From the IMG/VR virus record IMGVR_UViG_3300042898_002514: a DNA stretch of 64,000 nucleotides; one strand, 5' to 3'. Under the pieces are notes generated by a model. That model saw only the letters and a program-made list of their open reading frames with translations. It searched no databases and was not told the DNA's origin. A program made the position numbers and the translations under genes. Source of the DNA: a virus. Positions 7,225-36,727 of the stretch are shown piece after piece. The first letter of the stretch is position 1, and every line of letters starts with the position of its first letter.

Positions 7225-7226
7225 TC

Positions 7227-8396: not shown

Positions 8397-8464
8397 AATA
8401 TGTAGATATGGGATGTGTATGCATACACGATATAAGAGAGAGAAAAATTACTAATGACAACTGA
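8393..8464 (+). pseudogene. 23-aa minigene, probable deletion remnant of a radical SAM paralog
   Basis: GTG start overlapping the upstream stop, AAGGAG RBS; MKYVDMGCVCIHDIRERKITNDN resembles the C-terminus SCFCTHDMKARKFKI of the next gene. Confidence 0.55.
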
Positions 8465-9479: not shown

Positions 9480-9542
9480 AATATTCACAAAACAACGAAC
9501 AAGAAATTATATTAAATTTCTTTGTTATCAAGGAAAAATAAG

Positions 9543-10313: not shown

Positions 10314-10323
10314 TACATATTAC

Positions 10324-10470
10324 ATGCAATCAAAATATCCTTCAAAAACTTGGTGTATCTTACCCTGGGTACACCTTAGCACTAGACCCGATGGCAGTAT
10401 ACCTGTAAGATGTCCATTTAATTCTTGTTTCTGCACACACGATATGAAAGCACGAAAATTTAAAATATGA
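10324..10470 (+). pseudogene. 48-aa chimeric minigene (N-terminus of the 11107 rSAM fused to the C-terminus of the 8454 rSAM)
   Basis: MQSKYPSKTWCILPWVHLSTRPDGSI-PVRCPFNSCFCTHDMKARKFKI, in frame. Confidence 0.85.
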
Positions 10471-11105
10471 AATATTCACAAAACAACGAACAAGAAATTA
10501 TATTAAATTTCTTTAACGGACGCATAGGCCGTTATCTAGACATAGGTGCATTTGATGGTGTGGCGGCAAGCAACACTCTTGCTCTAGCTGAACTAGGTTG
10601 GCAGGGTACTGTCATTGAACCTTCTCCTTGGGTGTTTAAAAGATTAAAAAGCAACTATGAAGAAAGAAATCTAACAACAAATATAAGACTGATAGAAGCT
10701 GCTGCGGTTCCCAATAACTATCCAGCTCAAATGAAATTCTACGAAACACATCGAATGGATCACTTTGAAGTCGGCAATGGTGTTGGCGGGTTTTCTTTTG
10801 AACACTCCACTAAAGAAATATTGAGAAATGAAAACATTTATTACGGTAAAGTATTAGAAACTATAGTAGATACTATAAAAGTAAAAGATATATTTCATAA
10901 TACTAATTATAATTTTATAAGTATAGATGTTGAATCATTTAATCTTGAGTTAATGGTTAGTATTCCGTGGGAGACTCTAACAGAATTAGAGCTCATTTGT
11001 ATTGAATCGGATGTTCCTTTCTGGCGATTTGTTAATTTTATGAAACCGTTAGGTTGGGAAGTTCATAGGGTTGAGAATTTTAATCTATTTTTTGTAAGGT
11101 CATAA
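10467..11105 (+). CDS. FkbM family methyltransferase
   Basis: YSQ start, LDIGAFDG..SNT, IEP, SIDVE motifs. Confidence 0.88.
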   Translation: MKYSQNNEQEIILNFFNGRIGRYLDIGAFDGVAASNTLALAELGWQGTVIEPSPWVFKRLKSNYEERNLTTNIRLIEAAAVPNNYPAQMKFYETHRMDHFEVGNGVGGFSFEHSTKEILRNENIYYGKVLETIVDTIKVKDIFHNTNYNFISIDVESFNLELMVSIPWETLTELELICIESDVPFWRFVNFMKPLGWEVHRVENFNLFFVRS

Positions 11106-11106
11106 A

Positions 11107-12507
11107 TTGAGTTATCCTAGTAAAACATTTTGTATCCTACCCTGGGTACATCTAAGCACTCGACCAGACGGCAGTATGCGAGTGTGCTGTACAGCCAATG
11201 CCAGTGGAGTAGGTGCCAGCAACGATAAAAAACTTGGAGGAGCACAAGTAGGAGTACTCAAAGACGACGAAGGTCTCCCAAGCAATCTCAACAACACAGA
11301 CTTTCAAACAGCTTGGAATAGCAACTACATGAAGAATGTGCGTAAGCAGATGTTGGCCGGCGAACAACCTCCTAGCTGTACTAAATGTTATAAAGAAGAA
11401 GCTGCTGGTCATAATAGCAAACGTCAATGGGAAACTGAGTATTGGAAACAACGTGTAAGCGTAGACAAGTTGATCAACGAAACCAACGAAGACGGTAGTG
11501 TTCCCCCACAGCTGGCCTACATTGATCTACGTTTTGGAACCAAATGCCAATTGGCCTGTATCATGTGCAGCCCACATGACAGCAGTGGCTGGATCAAAGA
11601 TTGGCAGAAGGTGTTCCCCACACTGGAAAGTGAGGGAGTTAAAAAAATATGGCAATGGGATAACAAGGGCAGTATCAACGGCAGTAGTTATAATTGGCAC
11701 AAACAAAATCCTGTGTTCTGGCAACAGTTCTATGAACAGATTCCACATATGCAACAGGTTTACTTTGCAGGCGGAGAACCCCTAATCATCGACGAACACT
11801 ACGAGATCCTGGAAGAGATTATTCGACAGGGTCGTGCCAAAGACATTGAGATTCGCTACAACAGCAATGGAGTAGAATGGCGTGAAGATCTGTTTGAGTT
11901 ATGGAGCCACTTTAAAATTGTACGATTCCATTACAGCGTAGACAGCATAGGTGCTATGAATGAATACATTCGGTATCCCAGCAAGTGGGAACGTACACAA
12001 CAAGTATTCCGTATACTTGACGAGCAGACCACAGACAATGTAGAAGTAACTATTGCCTGCGCTGTAAATGCCCTAAACATATATTACATTCCAGACTTCT
12101 TGAAATGGAAACTGCAACAGAACTTCAAGAAAGTTAATATGTGGCCGTTAGGAGCAGGAGGTATAAACTATCACTTTGTCTATTGGCCAGCTTTCTTAAA
12201 TGTAAAAGTATTGCCACAATGGTTCAAAGATGAATGTGAACGCAAGTACGAAGAGTTTATTCCTTGGTTTGAAGAAAACTGGGAATTGTGTCTATCTGAA
12301 AAAGATAGAGGAAAGATAACTAAAGAACGTTGGCTAGCAAACAGCTACGGAGTGAAACGACTTCGAGGCATGATCAGCTTTATGAAGTCAGAAGACTGGA
12401 GTCAACGATTGCCGGAAATGAAAGACTATCTAGAAAAAATAGATGCACATAGAGGAATATCTTTCTATGATACTTTTCCAGAAATGAAGGATATTTTTAA
12501 TGAATAA
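11107..12507 (+). CDS. radical SAM protein with N-terminal twitch/SPASM-like domain
   Basis: FCILPW..CC..CTKC, then CQLACIMC and GGEP. Confidence 0.92.
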   Translation: MSYPSKTFCILPWVHLSTRPDGSMRVCCTANASGVGASNDKKLGGAQVGVLKDDEGLPSNLNNTDFQTAWNSNYMKNVRKQMLAGEQPPSCTKCYKEEAAGHNSKRQWETEYWKQRVSVDKLINETNEDGSVPPQLAYIDLRFGTKCQLACIMCSPHDSSGWIKDWQKVFPTLESEGVKKIWQWDNKGSINGSSYNWHKQNPVFWQQFYEQIPHMQQVYFAGGEPLIIDEHYEILEEIIRQGRAKDIEIRYNSNGVEWREDLFELWSHFKIVRFHYSVDSIGAMNEYIRYPSKWERTQQVFRILDEQTTDNVEVTIACAVNALNIYYIPDFLKWKLQQNFKKVNMWPLGAGGINYHFVYWPAFLNVKVLPQWFKDECERKYEEFIPWFEENWELCLSEKDRGKITKERWLANSYGVKRLRGMISFMKSEDWSQRLPEMKDYLEKIDAHRGISFYDTFPEMKDIFNE

Positions 12508-13624
12508 AAATATATTTTGTGTAGCACCTTTTGTTAATTTAAGTACAACCAATCACGGAAAAGTTAGACTGTGTTGTCAATCAAAGACACTAGGCAATCT
12601 TCATGTAAACAAAAATAGCCTAGAAGACATATGGCAAGGTCAAGATTATCAACGTGTTCGAGAACAATTTTTAAACAACAAATGGCCCACAGAGTGTGAT
12701 ACCTGTAGACTTAACGAAGAAAAAAGTATTCCAAGCCGTCGAAGTTTTGAAAATCAAAAATGGTCTCAAATAGAAAAAAAATCGTATCCAACACAGGCCG
12801 TTGATTTTCCATGGGCAGTTGATTTGAGATTGGGGAATCTGTGTAATTTAAAATGTATAATGTGTACTCCTGACAACAGCAATACATGGTATGATGAATA
12901 TGAAAATTTTGAACATCTCAAATTTTTTAAGAAGGATGAAAATGTTCGCTGGCCCCTACATCCTAGTTTTTTAGACAACTATCAAGAATGGGTTCCAAAG
13001 GTACGAGTGTTGTACTTTAGTGGAGGAGAACCTTTACTAATAAAAAAACATAGACAAATTATAGAATTTTTAATTGAAAAAGATCTAGCAAAAAATATTG
13101 TTCTTTGGTATGATACCAACGGAACTTACATCGATCAAGAGTGGATCGATATGTGGTCTCATTTTGAACAAGTTAATCTAAGCCTAAGCATAGATGGCGG
13201 CAAACAAATTAATGAATATATACGATTCCCCACAAATCATGACAGCCTTTTAGAAAATTATAAACTGCTTTCTACAAGATCAAAAAATATCAAGGTCAAA
13301 TTACAAATAGCAGTGGGTGCTTTAAATATTTTTGAAATTGATAAAATTAGATTATACTCAAATCAATTTAATTTTTCACTTAACTTTAATGTAAGTATTA
13401 TATTTTGGCCAATCTTTATGACATTGGATGCTTTACCACACAGTGTAATAGATCAAATAACAGCACAATATAAAAATGATCCCAATGATAGAATTAAAAA
13501 TATGACTAAAAATCTCAAACACGATCCACAAAAACTAAAAGAACTAAAAGAATATTTGAATAAAATAGATGAGCTAAGAGGATTAGATCATAGAACTTGT
13601 TTTGAATACCTATACAAGGACTAA
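12500..13624 (+). CDS. radical SAM protein with N-terminal twitch/SPASM-like domain
   Basis: FCVAPF..CC..CDTC, then CNLKCIMC and GGEP. Confidence 0.92.
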   Translation: MNKNIFCVAPFVNLSTTNHGKVRLCCQSKTLGNLHVNKNSLEDIWQGQDYQRVREQFLNNKWPTECDTCRLNEEKSIPSRRSFENQKWSQIEKKSYPTQAVDFPWAVDLRLGNLCNLKCIMCTPDNSNTWYDEYENFEHLKFFKKDENVRWPLHPSFLDNYQEWVPKVRVLYFSGGEPLLIKKHRQIIEFLIEKDLAKNIVLWYDTNGTYIDQEWIDMWSHFEQVNLSLSIDGGKQINEYIRFPTNHDSLLENYKLLSTRSKNIKVKLQIAVGALNIFEIDKIRLYSNQFNFSLNFNVSIIFWPIFMTLDALPHSVIDQITAQYKNDPNDRIKNMTKNLKHDPQKLKELKEYLNKIDELRGLDHRTCFEYLYKD

Positions 13625-13625
13625 T

Positions 13626-15593
13626 ATGAAAATACTGTTTGGATACTGGGATACTAGAAAATTAGCAAAAGGAATAACAAAAAGTTTTGCTGATCTAACC
13701 TTTTATTGGTCAAAGACAACCGGTGATACTTTGGCAAAAGAAGTAATAGATAATAGTACTGCCAGTTCTATTATTGCTTCGGATAATATAAACACAATAA
13801 TAAAACAGGCAAGTATAGAATCTGCAGATTTTTTGTTTATAGTACCATCGGGAACTATTTTCTTAAATCCAGTCCCTGTAGCCAACGGTCTATTAGAATT
13901 TATAAAAACAGATCCTGCAATAGCTGGACATATCATCGATCATTCAATTAAAAACAATAACTGGAAATCTTTCTTTGGATTGCATGAGCAATGCCTTATA
14001 ATTTCTAAGAGAGTTATAACCGACATAGTAACTGAGGGTTTTACAATAGAAGAGACATTTGAATATAGTGATACCAGTTGGCCGCTAATCGACCGAAGTG
14101 AATCAAATATACACGACAACTATACTCCTTTGTGGATAAAAAAAGGAACTGAAGAAACTGTGCAAATAGAAAAGAAAAATTCAGAATTTTGTCTTTTTCA
14201 TGATCTAATTAAATTTGTTATTAACAAAAATTACACTGTACACAACTTACCTCAAGAACTTAGAAACAATAGAACTTATACCTATCATTTAAATAGACCA
14301 AATGATCTCGAAGCATTGATAGATAAACCGTTATCTGAAATTAACAAAATAGAAACGCAAGTAAAAGGCCACAAAGAATTTTTAATCAAATGGAAAACAT
14401 TATTAAATCCCGAAGCAGGATTTTGGGCCTATAATACAGAATCTACATCAATTGATAACAATTTAAAAGTTGATTGTTTTATTGCTGTGGCCAGCGGAAT
14501 TATTCCGTGGAGTTATCTTGCGAAATTTGATCTTCAGCCTAATTCAAATATCTATTTTGTTGATGTAAATCAAAACTGTCTAGACTTTCAAAAATACATT
14601 TTAGATAATCTTTATAACTTTGACAGCTATTCAGACATTGTTGAAGAATTTAACAAAGACTATAGTCTAATTAGATTTGGTTCAAAAGGCCAATCAGTAG
14701 ATGAAGATAAACTTCTATTTGAAATTAAAGAAAAATGGAATATTATTAAAACTTGTAATTTTCACTTTGTTAAAGGTGATATAATTCATCTAGACGATAA
14801 TATTAAACAGGCCGTGAAAACTTCTAGTCATCCCTATGTTTGGTTTAGTAATGTACTACGCTACATTCCTAGTTTAACTCAACTGTATCGAGACGACAGT
14901 CTTCAGGCTTACCTAACAGAACTGCTATCCTATAATTTAAATTTTTCTTGGTCAGGCGTTGGAATCAACAATCATAGAAGTTCCGGACCAAATAGTTTAC
15001 CGAATGCTGTGGGAAATTTTTACAAAACAATTGACATTAAATTACCCTACAAAGACTTTGTTGATGAGATCAAATCTTTAGAGAATCTTAATTTATTCAC
15101 ACGTCATAGAAGTGATAATTATGTTAAAGGAGTGCAATTACACAGAGGTTGGTCAAGTTTTGTATTGCACGGATTAGGGTATGATAAAACTGAAGGGTAT
15201 GAAGTGTACGGCTATGACAATAATGACTCAGCTCCCTACGAATGGACTCAAGAAGCAATTGAACACTGCCCAAACTTGGTTAATTGGTTTAAAGAAAACA
15301 AGTTTAAAGACAGATACCATAGACTTCGAATAATGAAGCTAGATCCAGGCGGAATGATAGGACTGCATTCTGATAATCCTGATCCAAATACCTGGGCAAC
15401 CAACATGGCTATAATCAATCCAGAAGGCTGCGAAATGCATTTTTGGAACAAGAATTGGGAATACTTAGGACAGGTTCCTTGGGAGGCTGGTGATACCAAT
15501 AGAATAAGAATTGGCTATTTCCATATTGTAATTAATAAAAGCAACGAGACAAGATACCATATGATTATACACGGAGAAGGCGGATGGATGTAA
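13626..15593 (+). CDS. multidomain protein with C-terminal Asp/Asn beta-hydroxylase-like 2OG-Fe(II) domain
   Basis: RLRIMKLDPGGMIGLHSD...H.V.N....RYH. Confidence 0.75.
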   Translation: MKILFGYWDTRKLAKGITKSFADLTFYWSKTTGDTLAKEVIDNSTASSIIASDNINTIIKQASIESADFLFIVPSGTIFLNPVPVANGLLEFIKTDPAIAGHIIDHSIKNNNWKSFFGLHEQCLIISKRVITDIVTEGFTIEETFEYSDTSWPLIDRSESNIHDNYTPLWIKKGTEETVQIEKKNSEFCLFHDLIKFVINKNYTVHNLPQELRNNRTYTYHLNRPNDLEALIDKPLSEINKIETQVKGHKEFLIKWKTLLNPEAGFWAYNTESTSIDNNLKVDCFIAVASGIIPWSYLAKFDLQPNSNIYFVDVNQNCLDFQKYILDNLYNFDSYSDIVEEFNKDYSLIRFGSKGQSVDEDKLLFEIKEKWNIIKTCNFHFVKGDIIHLDDNIKQAVKTSSHPYVWFSNVLRYIPSLTQLYRDDSLQAYLTELLSYNLNFSWSGVGINNHRSSGPNSLPNAVGNFYKTIDIKLPYKDFVDEIKSLENLNLFTRHRSDNYVKGVQLHRGWSSFVLHGLGYDKTEGYEVYGYDNNDSAPYEWTQEAIEHCPNLVNWFKENKFKDRYHRLRIMKLDPGGMIGLHSDNPDPNTWATNMAIINPEGCEMHFWNKNWEYLGQVPWEAGDTNRIRIGYFHIVINKSNETRYHMIIHGEGGWM

Positions 15594-16819
15594 AAAAAGA
15601 AACTTTTTGTATTGCTCCGTTTACACACCTATCTACTAAAACTGACGGTAGTATAAAGGCCTGCTGCAGAAGTTTGCCAGCATTATCAAATATTAAAAAA
15701 GAAACTTTGCTTCAGGCCTGGAACAACGAAGAAATGAAACAGCTTCGCAACGACCTTATAAACGGCGTTAGAAACGAACGCTGTGATGTCTGCTGGAAAC
15801 TGGAAGATGTTGGCGCCCAAAGTCTTCGTATGAAGTACAACAGCTCTTCAGTGGGCAGACAGGTAATTAATGCAGAAACAAATTTAAAATCTATTAACGA
15901 AGATTATAGTTTAAACAATAAGCCTACTTGGATAGAATTTAAACTTAGCAATCTTTGCAATTTTAAATGTCGTATGTGCCACCCTATGGATAGTACACGT
16001 TGGTTTGAAGATTATAAAAAAATATCACACCTACACGAAGATAGTTGGCAACAAGAAATGATAGATCTTAATCTAACTAAAAAATCATTGTTAAAGAGTT
16101 ATCCGGAAGAATTTTTTGAAAACTTACCAGAGTTGATGAGTAATGTAGATGAAATTTGGTTTGCGGGCGGCGAACCTTTATACGACAATGATCATTATAG
16201 AATTCTTGAAAGTGTAATGCATCGCGCTGATAAGATTACTTTAAATTATGCAACTAATTTAAGTATGCTATCTAATAAAAAATACAATGTAGTTGATTAC
16301 TGGAAAAAATTTAAAAAAGTTATTGCAGCAGTGAGTTTAGATGGGCCTCCAGATCTTAATGAATATATTAGATCAGGAGCAGATAGCAAAGTAATCGAAG
16401 ATAACATAAGACTATTGCAGAAAGAATTACCTAATGTTTTTATACAGGGAAAAATAACAGTACAGGCGCTGAACATTTACTATGTCCCCGAAACGTTCGA
16501 ATGGTTCAAAAATATGAAGGTGTTCACAGGAGTTCATTTTGTCACTTGGCCAAAGTTCTTAGACAGTAGAATCTGGACCGGTGAAGCCCGGCAAGAAATT
16601 AAAGTAAAACTAGAATCTTATCTAAAACATCAAGACAACTTGAACGGTTTACAATTAAATGTAGGCAATAGTATTAGAGATGTTGTTAGATTTTTTAATG
16701 GATCTGAACAATATGATAACACTAAATGGAATAAGTTTTTAGAGTATAATAAAACACTTGACGGCGCAAGAGATGAAACGTTTGAAAAATTTGAGTTTTT
16801 AAAAAAATGGATGAAATAA
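15584..16819 (+). CDS. radical SAM protein with N-terminal twitch/SPASM-like domain
   Basis: FCIAPF..CC..CDVC, CNFKCRMC, GGEP. Confidence 0.92.
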   Translation: MDVKKETFCIAPFTHLSTKTDGSIKACCRSLPALSNIKKETLLQAWNNEEMKQLRNDLINGVRNERCDVCWKLEDVGAQSLRMKYNSSSVGRQVINAETNLKSINEDYSLNNKPTWIEFKLSNLCNFKCRMCHPMDSTRWFEDYKKISHLHEDSWQQEMIDLNLTKKSLLKSYPEEFFENLPELMSNVDEIWFAGGEPLYDNDHYRILESVMHRADKITLNYATNLSMLSNKKYNVVDYWKKFKKVIAAVSLDGPPDLNEYIRSGADSKVIEDNIRLLQKELPNVFIQGKITVQALNIYYVPETFEWFKNMKVFTGVHFVTWPKFLDSRIWTGEARQEIKVKLESYLKHQDNLNGLQLNVGNSIRDVVRFFNGSEQYDNTKWNKFLEYNKTLDGARDETFEKFEFLKKWMK

Positions 16820-17988
16820 CTTCTAAAACATTCTGTGTATTGCCATGGATGCATTTGGCTACAAATGCCAGCGGAAATTTACGTGTTTGTTGCAACAGCG
16901 ATCCCAAAAACAATAACATTTTAAAAAGTCCTGGCTCGTCATATCAAATACAACGTGATGATATGTTAGAAGCTTGGAATAGTCCTACATATACAAAAAT
17001 AAGACAGCAGTTTTTAGATGGAGAACGACCTGACATGTGCGTTAGATGTTTTCGAGAAGAAGATGCAGGTATTAAAAGTGCAAGACAAGCAGCCAACGAT
17101 AAATGGGGGACGGACCGAGAGTATCCGATCCAGGCGACATTTAATATTAGATATGTTGACATTCGATTAAGTAATTTGTGTAATCTAAAATGTCGTATGT
17201 GTAATCCTTATGCTAGTAATATGTGGACAGCAGAATGGCCCTTGATAGGAGAAGTTCTTAGTCAAAGCGAATACAATAGATTAAACAACATGGATTGGCC
17301 TGAAAGAGAAAAAACTTGGGAAAATTTATATCTTATTGCTGACACTGTAGAAGAAATATATCTAACAGGCGGCGAGCCAACAATTATTAAAGCACAGCAC
17401 AAACTCTTGGATTATTTTATAGATAGGGGTACTGCTAAAAATATTAGATTGAAATACAACACAAATCTTACTAATGTTCCAAAACATTTATTAGATCGGT
17501 GGACGCATTTTAAACGTGTACAATTGAATTGTTCTATTGATGCAACAGGAGAACTTGATCGTTATATTAGATTTCCCAGCAGTTGGCAGCATATCCAAGA
17601 AAACTTTGAAAAGATAAGAACATTAAAAAATTGTTCAATAGAGATCCATTGCACAGTACAGATGTATAATATACTTCGCCTCAACGAATTAATAGATTGG
17701 GCAGTTCCCTACGGACATAGAATTTATTTTAATATTTTAAATCACCCGGAAGAATTAAACATCCGGGTCTTGCCACAGCATCTAAAAGAACAAGTGGTTA
17801 AATTATTAGAACCTTATCTGCATATAGATAAAGTCAAAGGAATTATTGATTATATGAATGCAGAAGACTGGAGTCATAAACTTCCTAAGTTTTATCATTA
17901 TACAAACGCACTAGACAAGTCTCGCAACCAAGATCTAGCAACTTTAATACCAGAATTATCATATGAAAATACTAGTAGCAGGAAATAA
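16807..17988 (+). CDS. radical SAM protein with N-terminal twitch/SPASM-like domain
   Basis: FCVLPW..CC..CVRC, CNLKCRMC, GGEP. Confidence 0.92.
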   Translation: MDEITSKTFCVLPWMHLATNASGNLRVCCNSDPKNNNILKSPGSSYQIQRDDMLEAWNSPTYTKIRQQFLDGERPDMCVRCFREEDAGIKSARQAANDKWGTDREYPIQATFNIRYVDIRLSNLCNLKCRMCNPYASNMWTAEWPLIGEVLSQSEYNRLNNMDWPEREKTWENLYLIADTVEEIYLTGGEPTIIKAQHKLLDYFIDRGTAKNIRLKYNTNLTNVPKHLLDRWTHFKRVQLNCSIDATGELDRYIRFPSSWQHIQENFEKIRTLKNCSIEIHCTVQMYNILRLNELIDWAVPYGHRIYFNILNHPEELNIRVLPQHLKEQVVKLLEPYLHIDKVKGIIDYMNAEDWSHKLPKFYHYTNALDKSRNQDLATLIPELSYENTSSRK

Positions 17989-18517
17989 AAATTACGGCCT
18001 TGCTGCCGAATTATTTAAATTGTACCCAGATGTTTTTTTTGCTAGCCGTACTACAGGCTTTGATCTAACAAAAAATGATGATCAGAAAAAACTAGCGGAT
18101 CTCACATTAGATTATGATATCTTTATAAACTGTAGTGCTTTACATAAATTTAATCAAACTATTTTATTAGATGCAGTTTACAAAAAATGTACAGAGAATA
18201 ATCATAGACTTCAAATCATTTGCATAGGATCTACCACTGACCGTGTGAAGAAAGGCGGCGCTTGGTTGTATAACGCAGAAAAGAAAGCATTGAGAGACTA
18301 CTGCAATACACTAGGTATGAATGGTGTTTGGGATAACGGTCCTAAAATTACCTTAGTTAGTTTTGGAAGTTTAACAAATGTACAATCTAAACATCCTACA
18401 AGAAAATGTTTAGACATTGTTCAAGCCGCACTATATATTAAATGGATTGTAGAACAACCAAAAGATATTTGTGTAAATGAAATTAGTATAGATCCGTTAC
18501 AACAACCTTATGAATGA
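17963..18517 (+). CDS. short-chain dehydrogenase/reductase-like protein
   Basis: N-terminal G-x4-GLA Rossmann motif, FINCS, catalytic YxxxK (YNAEK). Confidence 0.75.
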   Translation: MKILVAGNKNYGLAAELFKLYPDVFFASRTTGFDLTKNDDQKKLADLTLDYDIFINCSALHKFNQTILLDAVYKKCTENNHRLQIICIGSTTDRVKKGGAWLYNAEKKALRDYCNTLGMNGVWDNGPKITLVSFGSLTNVQSKHPTRKCLDIVQAALYIKWIVEQPKDICVNEISIDPLQQPYE

Positions 18518-19679
18518 TTTAAGTTGGTCGGCCTACGACTTTACCCAAATACCCTACAACGATATTGTTCGTGTAGGACAACGTACAATGTTGTACAAAG
18601 ATCTCTTTACAGTCAGTTGGCTGTTAGGACGTTATTGTAATTACCGTTGTAGCTATTGCTGGCCCTATGCCCGCAGTGATACAAAAGACCACAGACCAAC
18701 CGAACTGTGTTTACGCACAATAGATGAAATCAAACGACAAGCTAGAGAACGCAATTTTAACAGTTTTCATTTTAGTCTTAGTGGCGGCGAGCCTACCTTC
18801 CATCCTGGTTATATTGATATCCTTAATTATCTAAATGATGATGTAGCAAACACAAACTATACTAGCGTACACATGACTAGCAATATGAGTAGACCACTTA
18901 AATGGTTTGAAGAAAAGTATTGTCCTGCTGTTAGTAAATTTCATCGTGCTAGTATCACTGCTAGTTTACATACAGAACACGTAGACACACCCGAGAAGAT
19001 GCAGGAGTTTGCCGACAAACTAATACTATGCCAGCAACACGATGTTCAAATAACTATTAATCAGGTTATGGTTCCTGAATGGTTTGAACGTGATTTTGAA
19101 AATGCTCTGTTCTTTCACAATCAAGGCATCAATGTTACACTAAAGCCTCAGAGTGATCCCACTGCTAGTCGTGTAGTTGATGGATATACTCCTGACATGT
19201 TAAAACGTCTACACAACGGTATGCCGCAACGTGCCTTCACTGAAGATAAAGCAACCAAGACCAAGTTAGTTAAACGTCCTGAACCCAAATTCTTTAAAAC
19301 ACCAGATCCTATTTACAAGCAAGAACACAGTAAAATACCACAGCATTTTCAAGTAGAGTTCGTAGATAAAGAACAGAAGATTTGGTACATGGATCAAGCT
19401 GAACGGTTCAATGCTTTTAATTTTAACAAGTTTACAGATTGGGAATGCTCAAGCGGCTACAGAGGCATTATTATACGTGAACCAGACGGCAGCATTAAAC
19501 GTAGCTATAGTTGCCACGATGCACCGTTAGGTAATATAGAAACAGGATTTCAGCTTTTTGACGGCCCTAAACCTTGTATTAGTCCTAGCTGTGTAAGCAG
19601 TGCAGACAGTAAAATACCTAAAAGAGCGCCAGGTACCAAACTGCCTCTTTGGCCCGGCGACAAAACTTTTGAATCCTAA
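18510..19679 (+). CDS. radical SAM protein
   Basis: CNYRCSYC, SGGEP, C-terminal Cys cluster. Confidence 0.92.
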   Translation: MNDLSWSAYDFTQIPYNDIVRVGQRTMLYKDLFTVSWLLGRYCNYRCSYCWPYARSDTKDHRPTELCLRTIDEIKRQARERNFNSFHFSLSGGEPTFHPGYIDILNYLNDDVANTNYTSVHMTSNMSRPLKWFEEKYCPAVSKFHRASITASLHTEHVDTPEKMQEFADKLILCQQHDVQITINQVMVPEWFERDFENALFFHNQGINVTLKPQSDPTASRVVDGYTPDMLKRLHNGMPQRAFTEDKATKTKLVKRPEPKFFKTPDPIYKQEHSKIPQHFQVEFVDKEQKIWYMDQAERFNAFNFNKFTDWECSSGYRGIIIREPDGSIKRSYSCHDAPLGNIETGFQLFDGPKPCISPSCVSSADSKIPKRAPGTKLPLWPGDKTFES

Positions 19680-19689
19680 TAAATACTTG

Positions 19690-19932
19690 ATGCGAATATT
19701 TGAAGTTATCCAAAACAAAGAATTAGACGAAGAGCCCGCGAGCCGAGCTCTTTGCACGAGCGGCAAACCCAATGCTGCACTAGGTGCCAGTCAACTGGCC
19801 AGCTGCAAGAGCCAAGGCTATCGTGGTCGACACGGCAATAAATCACACAAGATTGGCAATGAGCGCACCACAGTAAAAGGCAAAAGAATCAAGGGCAAGA
19901 AATATGGCGGCCCACTTCCAGACTGGAGTTGA
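19690..19932 (+). CDS. small basic protein with MRIFE N-terminus (putative virion-internal)
   Basis: ATG 4 nt after TAAATA; K/R-rich C-terminal half. Confidence 0.7.
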   Translation: MRIFEVIQNKELDEEPASRALCTSGKPNAALGASQLASCKSQGYRGRHGNKSHKIGNERTTVKGKRIKGKKYGGPLPDWS

Positions 19933-19938
19933 TCTAGA

Positions 19939-20496
19939 ATGCATAGAATCGAAAAAGGAGATTTATTAATATCTCCTCCTAACATGAGCGATTCAAGATT
20001 TGACAAAACAGTGTTACTGGTCACTCATAGTACAAATCGAGGTTCTCTGGCACTCTGTGTAAATCGCCCAACAAGCCATTCAATAAACAGCGTCCTCAAA
20101 GAAATAAACATAGAGCTGGCTCAAGATTTCAATCTCTATTGGGGTGGTCCAGTGGGACTCAACACAGTATGGATGTTACATCACAGTGATTGGAAGATGG
20201 ATTCAACACATAGGATCAATGCCGATTGGTCAATGACCAGCAATGTTGGTATGTTTCATCATCTAGCCGACAACGATTATCCAGAGCGTTTTAGAATATT
20301 TTTTGGACAAAGCAGCTGGGGCCCAGGACAACTTGAAGGCGAGCTACTAGGCGATCCGCCGTGGAGCAGACAACAAAGCTGGCTGACTTTAAAAACACCT
20401 GATCCAGTTTGGCTTTTAGAAACGAATACCAAAGAGATGTGGATAGAATCCACGCAGTTATGCGGAGAACAGGCCACTGACAGTTGGATGGCCTAG
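19939..20496 (+). CDS. YqgE/AlgH (DUF179) family protein
   Basis: LLISPP.M.D..F.KTV, NRP, GGPV, G.S.WGPGQL..EL. Confidence 0.9.
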   Translation: MHRIEKGDLLISPPNMSDSRFDKTVLLVTHSTNRGSLALCVNRPTSHSINSVLKEINIELAQDFNLYWGGPVGLNTVWMLHHSDWKMDSTHRINADWSMTSNVGMFHHLADNDYPERFRIFFGQSSWGPGQLEGELLGDPPWSRQQSWLTLKTPDPVWLLETNTKEMWIESTQLCGEQATDSWMA

Positions 20497-21384
20497 ATGC
20501 AACTTCGCAGTATTAGAGACAATCGATATTTCTATATCGACTGGTGGTTGATGAATCACTGCAATTACAATTGCAGTTATTGTCCTGATATTATAAAAAG
20601 TGGCAGTATTGACTTGCCAAACATCGAACACTGTTTGAAATTTGTTGATCAAGTTAGTGACTTTGCCAAAACCCTAGGCAAAACCTGTAATTATTATTTT
20701 ACAGGAGGGGAAGTTACTCAGTGGCCCTGGCTTGTGGATTTGATAAAACACATCAAGACAAAAAACAGTAACGTATGCATACGAACCAATGCCAGTATGC
20801 CTATTGCAGAATGGAAAACCCTGTTAGATACAGTTGACAGTATAAATCTAGAAGTACATTCAGAACACACTCCGATCAGTCATTTTATGCTATGCTTATA
20901 TGCTGCTAAAAAGAAAAATGTAAACGTAAGTATAACAGTGAGTATGTTGCCGGACCGATGGCAAGAATTAGAAGATACTATTACTAAAATAAAAAAAATG
21001 TGGCCCGATCAACTCGTTCATAGAAAGATGCTGTTTGAAGATCCCGCTATTAACAAACAGCCGATGGAATACAAACTTGAACACGCTGTAAAATTAAAAC
21101 GCCAACACGGAGATTTGATTTACGTTAATGACACAGGAGAAGAAGAATTTTCAGACTTTCAAACTCTTATGCTTGAGAAAAAGAATACGTTTCCCGGACA
21201 ACAGTGTATGGCCGGCGTTGAACAACTAATCGTTGATGCCTGGGGCCGTATAAAACGAGGCCACTGTGGTCAAGGTGGCCTTGTTGGAAAACTAGGAATA
21301 GAATTTACAGGGGTTCAAAACTCTATAATTTGCAAAGCCGATGCCTGTCGCAACGGCTTTGACATCCAAGCTACTAAACAGTAA
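20497..21384 (+). CDS. radical SAM protein
   Basis: CNYNCSYC, TGGE, C-terminal Cys. Confidence 0.9.
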   Translation: MQLRSIRDNRYFYIDWWLMNHCNYNCSYCPDIIKSGSIDLPNIEHCLKFVDQVSDFAKTLGKTCNYYFTGGEVTQWPWLVDLIKHIKTKNSNVCIRTNASMPIAEWKTLLDTVDSINLEVHSEHTPISHFMLCLYAAKKKNVNVSITVSMLPDRWQELEDTITKIKKMWPDQLVHRKMLFEDPAINKQPMEYKLEHAVKLKRQHGDLIYVNDTGEEEFSDFQTLMLEKKNTFPGQQCMAGVEQLIVDAWGRIKRGHCGQGGLVGKLGIEFTGVQNSIICKADACRNGFDIQATKQ

Positions 21385-22072: not shown

Positions 22073-22270
22073 TCATTGTGTGTCCTTGAACTGCCGTTCG
22101 GCAATCATAGTTTCAAAGGTAGCCCACAGTTGTTTGAACTTGTATTCATAAACACAGGCCAATGAGGTCATGTCTGCGGTATTGGCACCTTGAGCTTCCA
22201 TCATGGGAATGTCATCAGTGATCTTCCAGCAGTCCATAATTTGTTGTTCTAAATCAAATCTATCAGTCAT
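22073..22270 (-). CDS. hypothetical protein
   Basis: 65 aa, GGAG RBS. Confidence 0.7.
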   Translation of the reverse strand: MTDRFDLEQQIMDCWKITDDIPMMEAQGANTADMTSLACVYEYKFKQLWATFETMIAERQFKDTQ

Positions 22271-22595
22271 TCTTCTTCTCCGCTAATTGTTGTTCACATT
22301 GGTTAATCGTACGGTCCAGCATGGCCGTTGTGATTTCGTTGAGATTCATTTCAAAATGTTGTTTAACCATGTCTACTCCCTGTCCGCGACTAATCATGTC
22401 ACGCAACATGGGATTTAATGCTTGACAACATTCTGTCACAATCAACCGGGCGAATTTTTCGTTAAACTGTGTATGCCAATCAATGTGACCATCTTCCCAA
22501 ATCTTACCCGGAGTCTTGGATCTTACAGGCGGTGTATATACTTCATTTACATAATCACCAGCCTGTTTAGCAAGTTCTCTAATTCTTTCGTTCAT
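22263..22595 (-). CDS. MNERI/FAxLIV paralog family protein
   Basis: MNERIRELA...EKFARLIVTEC. Confidence 0.8.
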   Translation of the reverse strand: MNERIRELAKQAGDYVNEVYTPPVRSKTPGKIWEDGHIDWHTQFNEKFARLIVTECCQALNPMLRDMISRGQGVDMVKQHFEMNLNEITTAMLDRTINQCEQQLAEKKND

Positions 22596-22707
22596 AAAAA
22601 CCACTCCTTGATATGCCAGACCGCAATGGCGACAATATTAAACCATAAAGCAAACAACACCGTATAGATATACAGCATAGCCCAGCGTCCTGCTCGTTCT
22701 CCTTCTG

Positions 22708-22956: not shown

Positions 22957-23982
22957 TTATTCACTTTTTAACAAAAATTTATTAGAGATCGCCTTGAACG
23001 AACATTGCATGGCCTTGCTTTTAAACACAACGCCTTCACGTTCACAACCTATCATTCCCATAACTGATTTACCTTCTGCAAAACGCAGAATTCCGTCAAT
23101 GCTGTTGACTCCTAGGGTATCTGACAGTTCAGCCCCAAATGCCAGCACAGGCACGTGTTTGATGTCGTGTTCTTGAACAAATGCCTTGCGTTCGGCAGGA
23201 GTAAAGTACTTGCTGGTATCGATGTCGTAGATATCAAACAAGAAAAATTCCTGTCCTTTTTGCTTGTATGGATTACCTTGGATACCTTCTCCAATCAACT
23301 CACCTTGCAGTGCAAGATTACGATCGGCACGACGAAGCTTCAACTCCAAATCATTGCGTACTGCAACCTTCCACAGGCTGTTGGTTTCGCTGGGCTTGAG
23401 TTCAAGATTACGTGAACACACACCAAACTCTCCATCACGCAGATACACAGTCATTGAGCTGCCATCCAGCTTTTCAGTAACTTCCCAAACGTGTTGTTCT
23501 CTAAGCCAGTAGTCCAATTCTTCTTTCAAGTTTTGAACACGTTCTTGGTCAGTCTTTTGAATCCAACCTGGGAACATGCCCTTGACTTCTCCTGCCAATT
23601 GTGCTGGGATGGGGGCTTCGTATTTCACAATGCCTAGTGGAAATGATACATCGAGTCCTTCAAATAGTTCCGAATCTATCATAGTCAATGTAGACAATGG
23701 CAACAACAGCCCCTGGCTCAACTGTCCTCGAAGCTTCATTGTACGCAGACGTTCGCCTTGAATACCATCAAACACTCTGGGCTCCTTGCCCTTGCTCAAA
23801 AATGGTGCCAGTGCGTGAGGAATCCAAGAATCGATTTCGCAGTACACAGCAAGATCACCTGCGGCATATTCACCCTTCTTAACCACAGCCGTCCATCCAC
23901 CTACGACTGCACATTCGATAGCATCAGCATCCGGGATAGGACGCAGTGCATCAATCTTCCTAATGGTTGCTAACTTCCTCAT
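22957..23982 (-). CDS. ATP-dependent RNA ligase, DRB0094 family
   Basis: RKLATI N-terminus, EKLDGSS, GELIG..IQGN.Y, REGVVFK, FKAISNKFLL. Confidence 0.92.
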   Translation of the reverse strand: MRKLATIRKIDALRPIPDADAIECAVVGGWTAVVKKGEYAAGDLAVYCEIDSWIPHALAPFLSKGKEPRVFDGIQGERLRTMKLRGQLSQGLLLPLSTLTMIDSELFEGLDVSFPLGIVKYEAPIPAQLAGEVKGMFPGWIQKTDQERVQNLKEELDYWLREQHVWEVTEKLDGSSMTVYLRDGEFGVCSRNLELKPSETNSLWKVAVRNDLELKLRRADRNLALQGELIGEGIQGNPYKQKGQEFFLFDIYDIDTSKYFTPAERKAFVQEHDIKHVPVLAFGAELSDTLGVNSIDGILRFAEGKSVMGMIGCEREGVVFKSKAMQCSFKAISNKFLLKSE

Positions 23983-24014
23983 ATCAAGTCCTTTGATTAA
24001 CTGTCTAAGTGTAT

Positions 24015-24043
24015 ATTATACACTCAATATCATTTAATGTCAA
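24015..24043 (-). promoter_or_regulatory. sigma70-type promoter for the RNA ligase
   Basis: TTGACA-17-TATAAT. Confidence 0.85.
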
Positions 24044-24285
24044 CCGTTTTTATTCTCTAACTCTCGAGTCAAGTCATTCATCTTTGCTTTTAGTTTAGGA
24101 TATATTTGTCCCACGCTGATCAAGGTGCTGTGTGCAGTCTTTGGGTCAAATCCGTACTTGAGATGTTGCATCAAATTCAAATGCGCCATTGCAACCAAAT
24201 GCAAGGCCTGATCGGTGTCACGCCGGGCAATTTCTACTCTCTGCTGGGCCCATTCTTCGTGTGCTTTGAGCGGGACTTGATTCAT
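24040..24285 (-). CDS. hypothetical cassette protein
   Basis: Starts in the ATGA of the junction repeat. Confidence 0.75.
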   Translation of the reverse strand: MNQVPLKAHEEWAQQRVEIARRDTDQALHLVAMAHLNLMQHLKYGFDPKTAHSTLISVGQIYPKLKAKMNDLTRELENKNG

Positions 24286-24521
24286 TCTATAACTCCGAAA
24301 TGTTGTTTCATTCTTATCATTGCCAATCGAACACTTTTAGTATCAGCACTACCATCATCTTCACCTTCGACAATGTAGAGACATTCCTCAACAATCAACT
24401 CGGCGAACTTTTCAGTGTAATAGTCCATCCAGTGCCAAGAAATGTCACCGTCAAGATCCTTTGTACACTGATTGGCATATTCTTTTGCGTGGTCAGCCAG
24501 TTCTATGATTCGTTCGTTCAT
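24282..24521 (-). CDS. MNERI/FAELIV/FGVxE paralog
   Basis: All three conserved blocks present. Confidence 0.85.
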   Translation of the reverse strand: MNERIIELADHAKEYANQCTKDLDGDISWHWMDYYTEKFAELIVEECLYIVEGEDDGSADTKSVRLAMIRMKQHFGVIE

Positions 24522-24751
24522 TTTCCAATACCTTCTAATACATTTATCAAACGGTAAATCACTTTTTTCAAATTTTCTTCTGTGAGATAAAGTTCAATCA
24601 TCATGTCCATTTCTGCATCGTTGGATGTGTCTGTCATAGTAAGCATAAATGTACGGGAATTCACAGCAACCGGTCTGAGTGTTAAATCAACAAACCGATT
24701 ATCTGCATCGTATACACATTGTTGAAATATCGCACCGTGATCTATGTTCAT
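24518..24751 (-). CDS. hypothetical cassette protein
   Basis: Starts in the junction repeat. Confidence 0.75.
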   Translation of the reverse strand: MNIDHGAIFQQCVYDADNRFVDLTLRPVAVNSRTFMLTMTDTSNDAEMDMMIELYLTEENLKKVIYRLINVLEGIGK

Positions 24752-24939
24752 TCTTTAACTCCAAAACATACCTTTGCGGCATTCCATCCATACTGAAATG
24801 CTTCCCATTCTAGTTCATCGTAACCGTGCGCACGGCGGCCGTGCCAACCTTTCCAAGTTTGCGACCTTGAATCCGATGTGTCGTCAAGAAACTTGTCAAA
24901 CATATCTGATTGTTCTTGGGTGTCCCAATCTTTTTTCAT
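24748..24939 (-). CDS. hypothetical cassette protein ending FGVKE
   Basis: Bounded by junction repeats at both ends. Confidence 0.75.
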   Translation of the reverse strand: MKKDWDTQEQSDMFDKFLDDTSDSRSQTWKGWHGRRAHGYDELEWEAFQYGWNAAKVCFGVKE

Positions 24940-25169
24940 TCTTCAACTCCAAAACGGTCTTGAATTCTTTGTTCAATCTCATAGCATCTATCCAGCGCCC
25001 AGTCATCGGGTTCAGAAATGTTTCCCACATTACGTGCAATATTAGCGCATTCCTGCACAATCAACTCGGCGAACTTTACTTCGTTAGGCATATATTTCTT
25101 CATAAGGTAGACATCAGCAACCGTGGTTAGCCCAGCCTGTTCAGCAAGTTGTCGAATTCGTTCATTCAT
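24936..25169 (-). CDS. MNERI/FAELIV/FGVEE paralog
   Basis: All three blocks present. Confidence 0.85.
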   Translation of the reverse strand: MNERIRQLAEQAGLTTVADVYLMKKYMPNEVKFAELIVQECANIARNVGNISEPDDWALDRCYEIEQRIQDRFGVEE

Positions 25170-25257
25170 TCTGTCGTTGTCCTTTAATCTTCATTTGAAC
25201 GGTATGCATATATGATAGCTGCTACTATGTAACCTGCAATGAATCCTAAAATAAAAC

Positions 25258-25551
25258 TCATTCTTCAACTCCGAAATGTTCCCGAATCAAATCACCCTGT
25301 GTCTTACCACCTTCGGCAAGGATCCAATCAACTTTTCCGGCGCATTCTTTCACAATCAACTCGGCGAATTCTCTGTAATCAAAATCACTCAACTCTTCAC
25401 GATCACTACCATAGGGTGCAATTAGTCCTGCCTGTCTAGCAAGTTCTTTAATTCGTTCGTTCATACGATGTTTTCCTTGAATTTTAAGTCCTTCAAGTCT
25501 GGATTTCTCCCAACCTGATTCAACGGCTTTGATTAAATCTGGAACAATCAT
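25258..25551 (-). CDS. MNERI/FAELIV/FGVEE paralog (internal MNERI start at 25464)
   Basis: 29-aa leader from the junction ATG is in frame with MNERI. Confidence 0.8.
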   Translation of the reverse strand: MIVPDLIKAVESGWEKSRLEGLKIQGKHRMNERIKELARQAGLIAPYGSDREELSDFDYREFAELIVKECAGKVDWILAEGGKTQGDLIREHFGVEE

Positions 25552-25554
25552 TCT

Positions 25555-25752
25555 TCAACTCCGAAATAGGGCATTGCCCAATTGTTGTTCAAGGTCAGCA
25601 ACTTGTTTTTCATACCGATCAATTCTATTATCCCGGTCATCTTCTACGCTGCTTAATTGTTCCTGCAGATAAGTTATCTGTCCTTTTAAATATATAATCT
25701 CTTGGAGAAGTTCAAAGATTTTTTCTCGCTGAGGATCTTCATCATTGTTCAT
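25555..25752 (-). CDS. hypothetical coiled-coil cassette protein
   Basis: Ends inside a junction repeat read in a different frame (FRS-stop). Confidence 0.75.
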   Translation of the reverse strand: MNNDEDPQREKIFELLQEIIYLKGQITYLQEQLSSVEDDRDNRIDRYEKQVADLEQQLGNALFRS

Positions 25753-25985
25753 TCTTCAACTCCGAACTCTCGTTTAATTTTTACAGCAAGTTTATCATAC
25801 AAAATCCATCGACCATGAAGATCTACCATACTTGCACATTCCTGAACAATCAACTGGGCGAACTTTTTAGCACTCTTTTCACCTTGCCAATAAACAGTAG
25901 GTGGATTACCGTCCCGCATAGGATCACCGTCATGGTGTCGTATGCTATGGGCTTGTTGGTATAGTTCACGAATTCTGTCGTTCAT
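25749..25985 (-). CDS. MNDRI/FAQLIV/FGVEE paralog
   Basis: All three blocks present. Confidence 0.85.
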   Translation of the reverse strand: MNDRIRELYQQAHSIRHHDGDPMRDGNPPTVYWQGEKSAKKFAQLIVQECASMVDLHGRWILYDKLAVKIKREFGVEE

Positions 25986-26200
25986 TCTTCAACTCCGAAA
26001 TGTTCTTTAATCTGTTTAATGTGTTTAATTGACCTTTGATACTTTTCAGTATTGTGGCCATCACGAGTGATACCCATCTGAATAGTCTGAATACATTCTG
26101 CCACAATCAACTCGGCAAACTTGGTCAATTCAACCTCAAACATCTCCGCCACAGCAGTCAACCTAGCATCATCAATTAGTTTATCAATTCGTAGGTTCAT
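25982..26200 (-). CDS. MNLRI/FAELIV/FGVEE paralog
   Basis: All three blocks present. Confidence 0.85.
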   Translation of the reverse strand: MNLRIDKLIDDARLTAVAEMFEVELTKFAELIVAECIQTIQMGITRDGHNTEKYQRSIKHIKQIKEHFGVEE

Positions 26201-27592: not shown

Positions 27593-27619
27593 ATCTACCT
27601 TTCTGTGTGTGAAGTATAT

Positions 27620-27648
27620 ATTATACTGTGAAAATTACCACTTGTCAA
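27620..27648 (-). promoter_or_regulatory. sigma70-type promoter
   Basis: TTGACA-17-TATAAT. Confidence 0.85.
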
Positions 27649-28201
27649 CCACTCGCCAAACCTTTTGATCGGGACTTCGACAAATAATTCCTTGTTGCAT
27701 ATCAACTTTTCCAATATCGGGTTTGGATTCAATAAACCATTTACAGAAACTGCCTCTGTATCTAAATATATCTTTGTAGGCAGGATGCACTTGAACTTCA
27801 CTTTCCCAAATCAAATCACCTACAGATACTGTGGCCTTGTGTTTAGGTTTGGGTTCATCTGTGCAAATCAATTCTTGACTGCCGGTAATTTTAGTACCAC
27901 TTACAGATTCCAAAATACTCACACGCCCGGAATTCAACGCCTTGGCACAGATAGTATCCAAACTGTCATTGACACTGCCAATTTCCTCACCTTGAGCAGT
28001 ATGCCATTTGTTATTGATATAGGCTCGAAATGTAATTCGGCACAAGTTCTTACCGTTGCCTTCTGGTAACACCTTTCGTTCTACATCTGCAATCTGTTCA
28101 ATTGATGAAGTCAGTTTGCTCACGGTAGACGAGCGAGTATAACACTCTGCCTGCGCAGTTGCGGCTGACAGCAACACCAAACCAATTAGAAGCCTTGACA
28201 T
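27635..28201 (-). CDS. secreted Cys-containing hypothetical protein
   Basis: Signal peptide ending AQA. Confidence 0.75.
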   Translation of the reverse strand: MSRLLIGLVLLSAATAQAECYTRSSTVSKLTSSIEQIADVERKVLPEGNGKNLCRITFRAYINNKWHTAQGEEIGSVNDSLDTICAKALNSGRVSILESVSGTKITGSQELICTDEPKPKHKATVSVGDLIWESEVQVHPAYKDIFRYRGSFCKWFIESKPDIGKVDMQQGIICRSPDQKVWRVVDKW

Positions 28202-32552: not shown

Positions 32553-33137
32553 ATGTTAGTACCAATGGTAATTGAATCATCTAGTAAAGGCGAACGAGCC
32601 TACGACATTTACAGCCGACTGCTCAAAGAAAGAATTATCATGCTGAATGGTCCTGTAGAGGATCAAATGGCCAATGTTATTGTAGCCCAATTACTATTTC
32701 TAGAAAGTGAAAATCCAGACAAAGACATCAGCCTGTTTATCAACAGTCCCGGTGGAGTTGTCACATCGGGTATGAGCATCTATGACACCATGCAATTTAT
32801 CAAACCCGATGTATCAACCTATGTTATGGGACAGGCCTGTTCAATGGGATCATTGTTGGCCACTGCCGGAGCCAAAGGCAAACGTTTTATGTTGCCCAAT
32901 GCTCGACACATGATTCATCAACCCAGTGGCGGTGCTCGCGGACAGGCCACAGATATGCAGATTCAAGTTGAAGAGATTATTAAAATGAAAAAGACATTGA
33001 CTGAAATCTATGTCAAACACAACAGCCAGGGCAAAACTTTTGCACAGATGACTGCTGATATGGAACGAGACAAATTTATGAGTGCTGATGAAGCATTGGC
33101 CTACGGACTCATCGACAAAATTATAACGGAGAGATAA
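32553..33137 (+). CDS. clpP: ATP-dependent Clp protease proteolytic subunit
   Basis: [30 protein letters not shown]. Confidence 0.97.
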
Positions 33138-35933: not shown

Positions 35934-36092
35934 ATGACTGAAGAAACAGAAACATATCAACGACTAAAACCCAAATGCACCTGCTGGTGTACCGCACACT
36001 GCGGATTCAGCTGTATGACAGACGGCTGCGATTGCCCGGACTGTGAATGTAGTGATTGTGTAGACAAAGGTATTCAACGAGGCTACAACTAA
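35934..36092 (+). CDS. 52-aa Cys-rich metallothionein-like peptide
   Basis: 10 Cys in CTCWCTAHCGFSCMTDGCDCPDCECSDC; fills the gap between coupled genes. Confidence 0.7.
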   Translation: MTEETETYQRLKPKCTCWCTAHCGFSCMTDGCDCPDCECSDCVDKGIQRGYN

Positions 36093-36727
36093 TGAGTTTC
36101 TTAGTGGCTAATCTGCCACCTGTACATTGTTTTGTAAGACGAGAATTTCTCTACGATTTTAAATCAGGATACGGAGAGTATGAACCCTGCATCTGGGTTA
36201 GTATCAAGAGCCTACGCAGTCAAGCATTCCGCATAGAAAGCTATTTGCCCAGATACGGTGCTCTCTATGACAAGCTGCCCCTACATGCCTATGTGAGTAG
36301 AAACACTGACTTAGAGTCGGACAAGTTCCTATCATTGGACACCTTACAGATTTGGGATTGTTTCAGCTATGACATAGCTGTGATCCAGAAAGCATTTCTA
36401 CGCAATCTCAGCTGTGAGTTCTATGCCAAGGATCGTCAGCTACACAAGGGCAAATACTTGTTCACAGTGGACAATGCCGCACCTGACATGAACATCATAG
36501 ACACCACATATTCAGAATGGCCTGAAGATCACAAGAGCTTTAACTTTATCGAACTAGACAACGGACAGTATGCCGCACAGCCCAACAATCGCTGCAGATT
36601 CTTTGATGCCGCCAGCAATCCCAAAGAAATGCTGCACCCAGACTTCAAAGTGGCCACTAAGAAGTGGGTGGTTGAACAGAACCCTAAATGGCGTCTAGGT
36701 GACTCAGACACTGTTACATACGAATAA
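36092..36727 (+). CDS. hypothetical phage protein
   Basis: MSFLVANLPP...AAQPNNR; ATG overlaps the upstream stop. Confidence 0.8.
   Translation: MSFLVANLPPVHCFVRREFLYDFKSGYGEYEPCIWVSIKSLRSQAFRIESYLPRYGALYDKLPLHAYVSRNTDLESDKFLSLDTLQIWDCFSYDIAVIQKAFLRNLSCEFYAKDRQLHKGKYLFTVDNAAPDMNIIDTTYSEWPEDHKSFNFIELDNGQYAAQPNNRCRFFDAASNPKEMLHPDFKVATKKWVVEQNPKWRLGDSDTVTYE

Follow-up and report, generated by a model that had tools for sequence, protein, structure and literature searches.

In our assessment, an array of short genes in an uncultured phage has probably been shaped by homologous recombination at constant blocks, which would couple translation as well. The array occupies positions 24040–26200, minus strand, of a 64,000-nucleotide (nt) stretch of viral DNA (IMG/VR record IMGVR_UViG_3300042898_002514), which is referred to below as the window. 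Its genes meet at copies of an 18-mer that an earlier note, made from the sequence alone, had described as the plug-in junction of an integron-like array. Judged by comparison with related loci, the blocks can be shown to be conserved as DNA, partners to switch at them and foreign genes to carry them, and the anatomy of the junction suggests that it couples translation. We take the junction block for a case of gene shuffling by recombination that has not been catalogued before, and not for an integron.

The junction repeat and the genes that it joins

The 18-mer matches the minus strand at seven positions (24282, 24748, 24936, 25258, 25548, 25749, and 25982; span 24282–25999), with neighboring copies 188–466 nt apart. 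Of these, four are exact, one differs at one position, and two differ at two; the seven copies at this spacing that had been reported earlier are found only when one or two mismatches are allowed. Chance alone would give 0.08 matches, and none of 100 shuffled sequences gave seven. In every copy, a 7-nt spacer separates GGAG from an ATGA in which stop and start codons overlap, in agreement with the ribosome-binding site and overlap previously assigned to each, and the ATG inside each ATGA is the start of the next open reading frame (ORF), including that of a 25-amino-acid (aa) hydrophobic peptide. Together with 12 nt upstream, the 18-mer makes up a conserved junction stretch of about 30 nt.

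A repeat finder resolved the array repeats into three families: the junction, a mid-gene block with five copies, and a start-of-gene block with four. At the protein level, five array ORFs and a distant copy align over all three blocks of one family, which are, in order, MNERI..EL, FAELIV.EC, and HFGVEE; the 18-mer is the core of the family's 3′ constant block (about 30 nt). Family members are helical and about 75 residues long (about 70–100).

The genes of the array, all on the minus strand, are chained through 4-nt overlaps. Junction J1 (25982–26011; exact, with a further 12 or so conserved nt upstream) ends family paralog P1 (25982–26200, 72 aa; mid block 26085–26123) and starts P2 (25749–25985, 78 aa; mid block 25828–25866). 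J2 (25749–25778, exact) ends P2 and starts a non-family coiled-coil ORF (25555–25752, 65 aa), which reads J3 (25548–25577, exact) out of frame and ends there as FRS-stop. The ATG of J3 opens P3 (25258–25551), a family paralog with a 28-aa N-terminal extension, an internal family start at 25467, and a mid block at 25334–25372. P3 ends at J4 (25258–25287, exact), which starts the 25-aa membrane peptide (25184–25261). J5 (24936–24965, one mismatch) ends P4 (24936–25169, 77 aa; mid block 25039–25077, start block 25127–25172) and starts an unrelated, non-family ORF of 63 aa (24748–24939), which itself ends as FGVKE at J6 (24748–24777, two mismatches). An unrelated 77-aa ORF follows J6 (24518–24751, non-family; homologues of 45–49% aa identity in contigs L029, L187, and L007), and P5 (24282–24521, 79 aa; mid block 24373–24411) ends as FGVIE at J7 (24282–24311, two mismatches), where the last gene of the unit, an unrelated 81-aa non-family ORF (24040–24285), begins. 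The claims of the earlier note about these termini, namely five paralogs ending as FGVEE or FGVIE, an unrelated ORF with an FGVKE end, one copy read out of frame, and unrelated ORFs started by the junction ATG, were all confirmed in the sequence and the ORF list.

The heptamer GAGTTGA is common to the mid and junction blocks, where it is read in different frames (e.g., 25989–25995 and 25061–25067). It has 27 sites in the window, nearly all on the coding strand, compared with 8.8 expected; 10 of them lie inside the array and 17 outside. A Chi-like role for the heptamer was set aside; only an approximately two-fold excess is left once the array copies are removed.

The blocks are conserved at synonymous sites

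The exact 18-mer was found in 176 copies in at least 120 IMG/VR contigs, often several times per contig at intervals of 200–300 nt, and nearly always encodes ...HFGVEE-stop with an overlapping ATG that opens an ORF. Because a sample collected by the exact 18-mer is biased, codon use was measured in two codon-blind samples, one made up of loci reached through the neighboring RNA ligase gene and the other of loci reached with degenerate peptide patterns drawn from the mid and start blocks. The RNA ligase relatives (80 loci, up to 94% aa identity) lose homology at the gene borders, 23982 and 22967; being confined to the ligase gene, this homology makes the loci unusable as relatives of the array, and they served as a codon sample independent of the 18-mer.

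In the codon-blind samples, the 3′ block of FGVEE ends uses GGA in 97% of cases, GTT in 97%, GAA in 99% at both positions, CAT for the preceding His in 97%, and TGA in 97%. The mid block uses AAG (91%), GCC (83%), GAG (90%), TTG (91%), ATT (94%), and TGT (91%), and the start block AAC (92%), CGA (94%), and CTT (76%). Background shares at these loci, which range from 34% to 50% guanine plus cytosine (GC), are 22% for GGA, 35% for GTT, 22% for GCC, 27% for TTG, and 14% for CGA. The closing Val of the mid block and the closing Gly of the start block use all four codons, and this free variation at the edges serves as an internal control: synonymous sites are otherwise saturated in these lineages. 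Hence the proposal that the junction is conserved as DNA beyond the needs of the protein is upheld, with codon shares far above background, and synonymous sites do not vary freely (GGA, 97% versus 22%; CGA, 94% versus 14%). The mid and start blocks are as fixed at synonymous sites as the junction.

The junction is carried by unrelated genes

Among 363 junction sites with enough flanking sequence, 355 keep the ATG and 249 feed an ORF outside the family. The in-frame upstream ORF lacks the mid block at 81 of the 363 sites, and at 21 the ORF ends within the motif in another frame. The coiled-coil ORF of the window is a case of the latter kind: its homologue in L168 (95% aa identity) terminates in that same out-of-frame junction. 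In L041, a 55% homologue terminates at a site of its own, with no junction, which indicates that the block was acquired by the coiled-coil cargo gene. The claim that the junction is attached to unrelated cargo is therefore borne out, out-of-frame cases included.

Behind the out-of-frame junction of L168 stands a gene (L168:5320–5450) that begins with a family-type start block, followed by a 35-aa Cys-rich insert and a second start block without ATG; P3 of the window has a different 28-aa extension at the position of this insert. Apparently, small segments are inserted between junction and start block.

Homology between phages ends at the blocks

Each cassette of the window has its nearest relative in a different contig and in a different context, and the alignments end on blocks. 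The 63-aa ORF is 95% identical at the nt level to a counterpart in L002 from junction to junction, and both neighbors differ. The 25-aa membrane peptide, together with the next start block, has a 96% match in L037, directly behind a junction, and the 81-aa ORF is 87% identical (nt) to a gene of L022, the alignment opening at the junction; in L002, L022, and L037 alike, the shared cargo again stands behind a junction, with other neighbors. Paralogs are split internally. The N-half of P2 is 89–93% identical (nt) to sequences in L187, L029, and L007, with homology ending at its mid block, the C-half of P4 is 90% identical to L050 beginning at its mid block, and the two halves of P3 match different contigs (N-half L033, 87%; C-half L106, 85%).

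To compare halves systematically, we took 248 distinct three-block genes from 134 sources and counted halves as alike at 80% nt identity or more. Pairs were alike in the N-half only in 48 cases, in the C-half only in 43, and in both halves in 3, with the unlike half of discordant pairs at the random level of 55%. On these counts, the N- and C-halves assort independently. The flanks of 368 distinct junction contexts gave a similar picture. Similarity on both sides was found in 2 of 69 junction pairs, as opposed to 117 of 229 pairs of control boundaries (Fisher p = 3e-15), the controls being ATGA overlaps without the motif at the same loci, conserved core genes among them. Where only one flank was alike, the similarity extended to 10 nt or less from the junction (65 of 67 pairs).

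A near-identical variant, which surfaced through a 97% homologue, shows one such join at close range. Contigs L288–L290 come from three JGI samples. Between 25150 and 23851 they do not differ from the window, and upstream of 25172 they bear no relation to it. This 1.3-kilobase (kb) match has only three mismatches, clustered at 25151–25154 inside the P4 start block, and in these contigs P4 is preceded by a different family member that ends in the exact 18-mer. We read this join as a recent crossover inside a constant block.

Hence cassettes do differ between phages, as had been proposed; neighbors change, and the breakpoints fall on the blocks instead of avoiding the repeat. The junction is not a special plug-in site: breakpoints do lie there, but it is one of three equally conserved blocks, and crossovers occur in the mid and start blocks too.

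The strongest alternative to recombination at constant blocks is that the 18-mer is fixed only by dual coding, as the code for a helix end plus the ribosome-binding site and start of the next gene, with the mosaicism produced by illegitimate recombination and filtered to gene borders, as is generic in phages, and the block having no role in recombination. In its favor, the junction combines GGAG and its spacing with the ATG and the stop overlap, an ATG is supplied at 355 of the 363 sites, the lack of structure is typical of a good start site, and one-sided similarity is also seen at 112 of the 229 control ATGA pairs. However, the mid-gene block is equally conserved without any start role, as is the start block (CGA, 94%; CTT, 76%), and GTT and CAT, each at 97% in the 3′ block, do not pair with the anti-Shine-Dalgarno sequence. 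Dual coding also leaves unexplained the assortment of half-genes at the mid block and the start-block crossover in the near-identical variant, and linkage across junctions is 17 times below that of the controls. We consider this explanation unlikely.

Searches for RNA structure, a recombinase, and variation between samples

The RNA folds predicted at the seven junctions differ from one another and are weak (z-scores −2.3 to +0.8), and a hairpin at the junction was rejected as a candidate; no conserved or consistent fold was found at the junctions, which leaves the start site open. These results bear on the possibility that the conserved start region, and perhaps the other blocks too, are RNA-level operators, i.e., sites at which a regulator of many early messages binds or cleaves. 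Phage T4 provides models for such control in the RegA repressor and the RegB nuclease, which cuts at GGAG. An operator would account for conservation of about 30 nt around the start codon, more than the ribosome needs, for retention of the block even where it is not read as HFGVEE, and for the excess of GAGTTGA in the window (27 versus 8.8), though 10 of the 27 sites lie in the array. It lacks a conserved fold, does not predict homology breakpoints on the blocks, and has no regulator among the ORFs scanned, ORFs below about 150 aa outside the array not having been included in the scan. We regard it as decidedly improbable.

Neither an attC-like hairpin at the cassette borders nor, with the repeat finder, an inverted repeat at any junction was detected. 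Pfam and PHROG scans of the 64 kb (array ORFs, most ORFs of at least 150 aa, and some smaller ones) gave no integrase or other recombinase, and the only nucleases found were an HNH endonuclease and a PD-(D/E)XK nuclease. Variation within this phage was minimal. All seven of its fetched contig stretches, from six samples, were 99.96%–100% identical in the array, other contigs that were read had the same neighboring genes, with the array proteins indexed in over 100 collection blocks, and exact-protein look-ups with seven array proteins returned the same genotype only. The mosaic of the window was reproduced base for base in independent ENA, JGI, and NCBI assemblies. Fixed content and order therefore describe this phage, whose array is near-invariant across samples, but not the comparison between phages, in which neighbors differ.

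The integron-like array of the earlier note, with the junction as the site of a dedicated recombinase encoded outside the window, would fit the direct repeat at each cassette border and the short, apparently promoterless cassettes behind one strong promoter. Against it stand the missing inverted repeat or hairpin at the junction, the lack of a tyrosine or serine recombinase among the ORFs scanned, crossovers at two other, unrelated blocks within genes, and an array that is invariant over all contigs and samples read. With no integrase found among the ORFs scanned in the 64 kb and no hairpin resembling attC, homology-dependent recombination fits better than a site-specific system, and the integron reading was abandoned as very improbable. 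Mis-joining of different phages at shared blocks by assemblers, which could mimic re-assortment in comparison sequences that are all metagenomic, with many contigs under 2 kb and two variant contigs beginning right at a junction, is scarcely credible given the recurrence of the window mosaic base for base in ENA, JGI, and NCBI assemblies, the presence of the variant join in three samples, and blocks of 40 nt or less, well below the final k-mer length in the k141 contigs.

Proposed mechanism

In the mechanism that we propose, the start, mid, and 3′ blocks (about 17–45 nt, identical in many phages) would be crossover points for ordinary homology-dependent recombination, and the units exchanged would range from half-genes to entire genes and to cargo from outside the family that had acquired the block. 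A ready-made translation start would also be provided by the 3′ block, in which GGAG is followed by 7 unstructured nt and by an ATG overlapping the upstream stop; given this arrangement, any ORF behind the block would be translationally coupled to the gene in front. A cassette whose blocks had drifted would no longer recombine into new genomes, and drift in the 3′ block would cost it the start signal too. The synonymous conservation is most readily accounted for if the DNA itself is under selection, which would maintain the ability to recombine and, in the 3′ block, a working start site as well.

Several points weigh against this mechanism. Recombination alone does not fix synonymous sites, and selection on DNA is needed in addition. 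Part of the 17-fold contrast in linkage may reflect the type of region, as the control boundaries include conserved core genes. The near-identity of the array across samples (seven of seven stretches) and the unchanged neighboring genes in the other contigs argue that exchange is rare. No recombinase was found among the ORFs scanned within the 64 kb, and since the comparison DNA consists entirely of metagenome assemblies, mis-joins at repeats are possible in principle. Shuffling takes place on an evolutionary time scale and is not high-frequency.

A further possibility is that the blocks are dedicated signals of a combinatorial diversification system run by the phage, e.g., through a block-recognizing nuclease or a recombination mediator that focuses breaks. 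We think this improbable. If true, it would give the phages a very large mix-and-match repertoire of mini-proteins, with new cargo loaded into a pre-wired expression slot, and would constitute a homology-guided counterpart of integrons or of segmental gene conversion.

Comparison with known systems

In mechanism, the closest known system is the modular shuffling of T4-type phages mediated by promoter-early stem-loops (PeSLs). PeSL cassettes occur in the hyperplastic regions of these phages, where the short repeats stand between small non-essential genes and homologous exchange inserts, deletes, or replaces ORFans; mini-circles have been demonstrated (Arbiol et al., 2010, PMC2839356; Comeau et al., 2014, PMC4122927). 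As with PeSLs, a conserved repeat would be the exchange point between otherwise unrelated flanks (2/69 versus 117/229 pairs in our data), and the array lies in an early-type region with consensus sigma-70 promoters, its end carrying a promoter element (about 65 nt) that recurs. However, PeSLs are non-coding and consist of a promoter and a terminator stem-loop, whereas the array block is coding sequence plus ribosome-binding site and start codon, with neither promoter nor stem-loop, and exchange in the array would also split genes at an internal block.

The gp38 tail-fiber adhesins of T-even phages have glycine-rich motifs between hypervariable segments; the structural core is built from the constant motifs, and the variable segments are re-assorted between phages (Trojet et al., 2011, PMC3157838). 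Constant and variable segments alternate in the array family too, and the variable ones appear to re-assort. In contrast, gp38 is one essential gene whose function, in host range, is known, while the array holds a multi-copy family of tiny proteins, and its 3′ block also links unrelated genes and probably couples their translation.

The array resembles an integron in having short, apparently promoterless, co-oriented cassettes, one promoter, and a repeated sequence at the borders. Integron arrays are built by the integrase IntI at attC sites, with short promoterless cassettes that share an orientation, a single promoter ahead of them, and one repeat per border. In the array neither an integrase nor a folded attC was found, the repeat is coding, there are several exchange blocks, and no site-specific chemistry is indicated. 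The array lacks the defining features both of PeSLs (promoter plus stem-loop) and of integrons (integrase, attC). ATGA stop/start overlaps with the Shine-Dalgarno sequence inside the upstream gene commonly couple translation in phage and bacterial operons, and the junction is such an overlap as well; ordinary ones, unlike the junction, are not about 30 nt of identical DNA over phages of 34%–50% GC and are not carried from gene to gene.

The mini-protein family and the cargo

Searches with the family returned 284 metagenomic relatives at E ≤ 0.001, every one hypothetical or without a name and none with a Pfam domain. An AlphaFold model has four helices, with a mean predicted local distance difference test (pLDDT) score of 79; searched against PDB and BFVD, it gave no named fold and matched only uncharacterized proteins of uncultured phages, and a search of the ESM Atlas gave only "hypothetical protein" matches. 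Pfam and PHROG searches with all array proteins yielded nothing over threshold, and the cargo proteins, for which the earlier note had suggested that they may act in anti-defence or host takeover, had no family or fold match. Among 50,697 records of cultured phages, no match was obtained by megablast of the array or by tblastn of one paralog. A literature search for HFGVEE, FGVEE, and FAELIV retrieved no paper with these motifs from the library searched. The family appears from these searches to be confined to uncultured phages, and the block-bearing phages are uncultured lake phages, hundreds of which keep the junction block unchanged to the letter.

A distant sixth paralog (22263–22604, minus strand, 113 aa) lies outside the array. 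Its junction has decayed, with about 8 nt of the block gone, and HF is followed in frame by the MN... of the next ORF. Because of this decay, the frame continues into a 30-aa tail, giving a 113-aa fusion. At its own 3′ end, GGAG, 7 nt, and an ATG overlapping the stop are present again.

Genomic setting

The array lies within one promoter-to-promoter unit of a large lytic-type phage. A sigma-70 consensus promoter (12/12 match) at 27620–27648, minus strand, is the likely start of its transcription unit, and another (24015–24043, minus strand, 12/12 match) lies directly past the array, ahead of the RNA ligase gene. Inside the array, a pattern scan showed neither a 12/12 promoter nor a minus-strand terminator. 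Both promoters belong to an element of about 65 nt (23986–24050 and 27595–27660, minus strand) with a perfect TTGACA, 17 nt, TATAAT, and then a ribosome-binding site; copies with 78%–85% identity occur several times per contig at many related loci (L011, L022, L064, L180, and L181). No stem-loop was detected beside this element, which may be a second kind of shuffling point, nearer to PeSL. The RNA ligase gene (22957–23982, minus strand) behaves as an isolated module, its relatives being 74%–90% identical (nt) with wholly different genes on either side.

The window also encodes a DNA ligase, an HNH endonuclease, a ribonucleotide reductase, ClpP, many radical-SAM enzymes, and three transfer RNAs (tRNAs) in addition to the RNA ligase. 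Nine radical-SAM genes, several with SPASM domains, form a run at 7215–21384 (plus strand) that also holds an FkbM-type methyltransferase, an Asp/Arg hydroxylase-like protein, and an AlgH-like gene; this cluster is unusually large for a phage, and its GC content (33%–40%) is below that of the rest of the window. The tRNA genes (Leu-TAA, Arg-TCT, and Met-CAT) are clustered at 2553–2828 (minus strand). Auxiliary metabolic genes encode a ClpP protease (32553–33137), a ferredoxin-family protein (36056–36727), a fatty-acid desaturase (40242–40946), and an AhpC-type peroxiredoxin (61444–62028).

Implications

Hyperplastic regions hold most of the unknown genes of phages, and their turnover has been documented for few systems, such as PeSLs and gp38. 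The exchange points described here are coding blocks with a ribosome-binding site and a start codon, so that a gene dropped in would be expressed at once and half-proteins could be recombined. The mini-protein family is very large, and the speed at which it re-assorts hints at involvement in an arms race. The array also offers a natural test of whether selection on DNA can preserve recombination competence.

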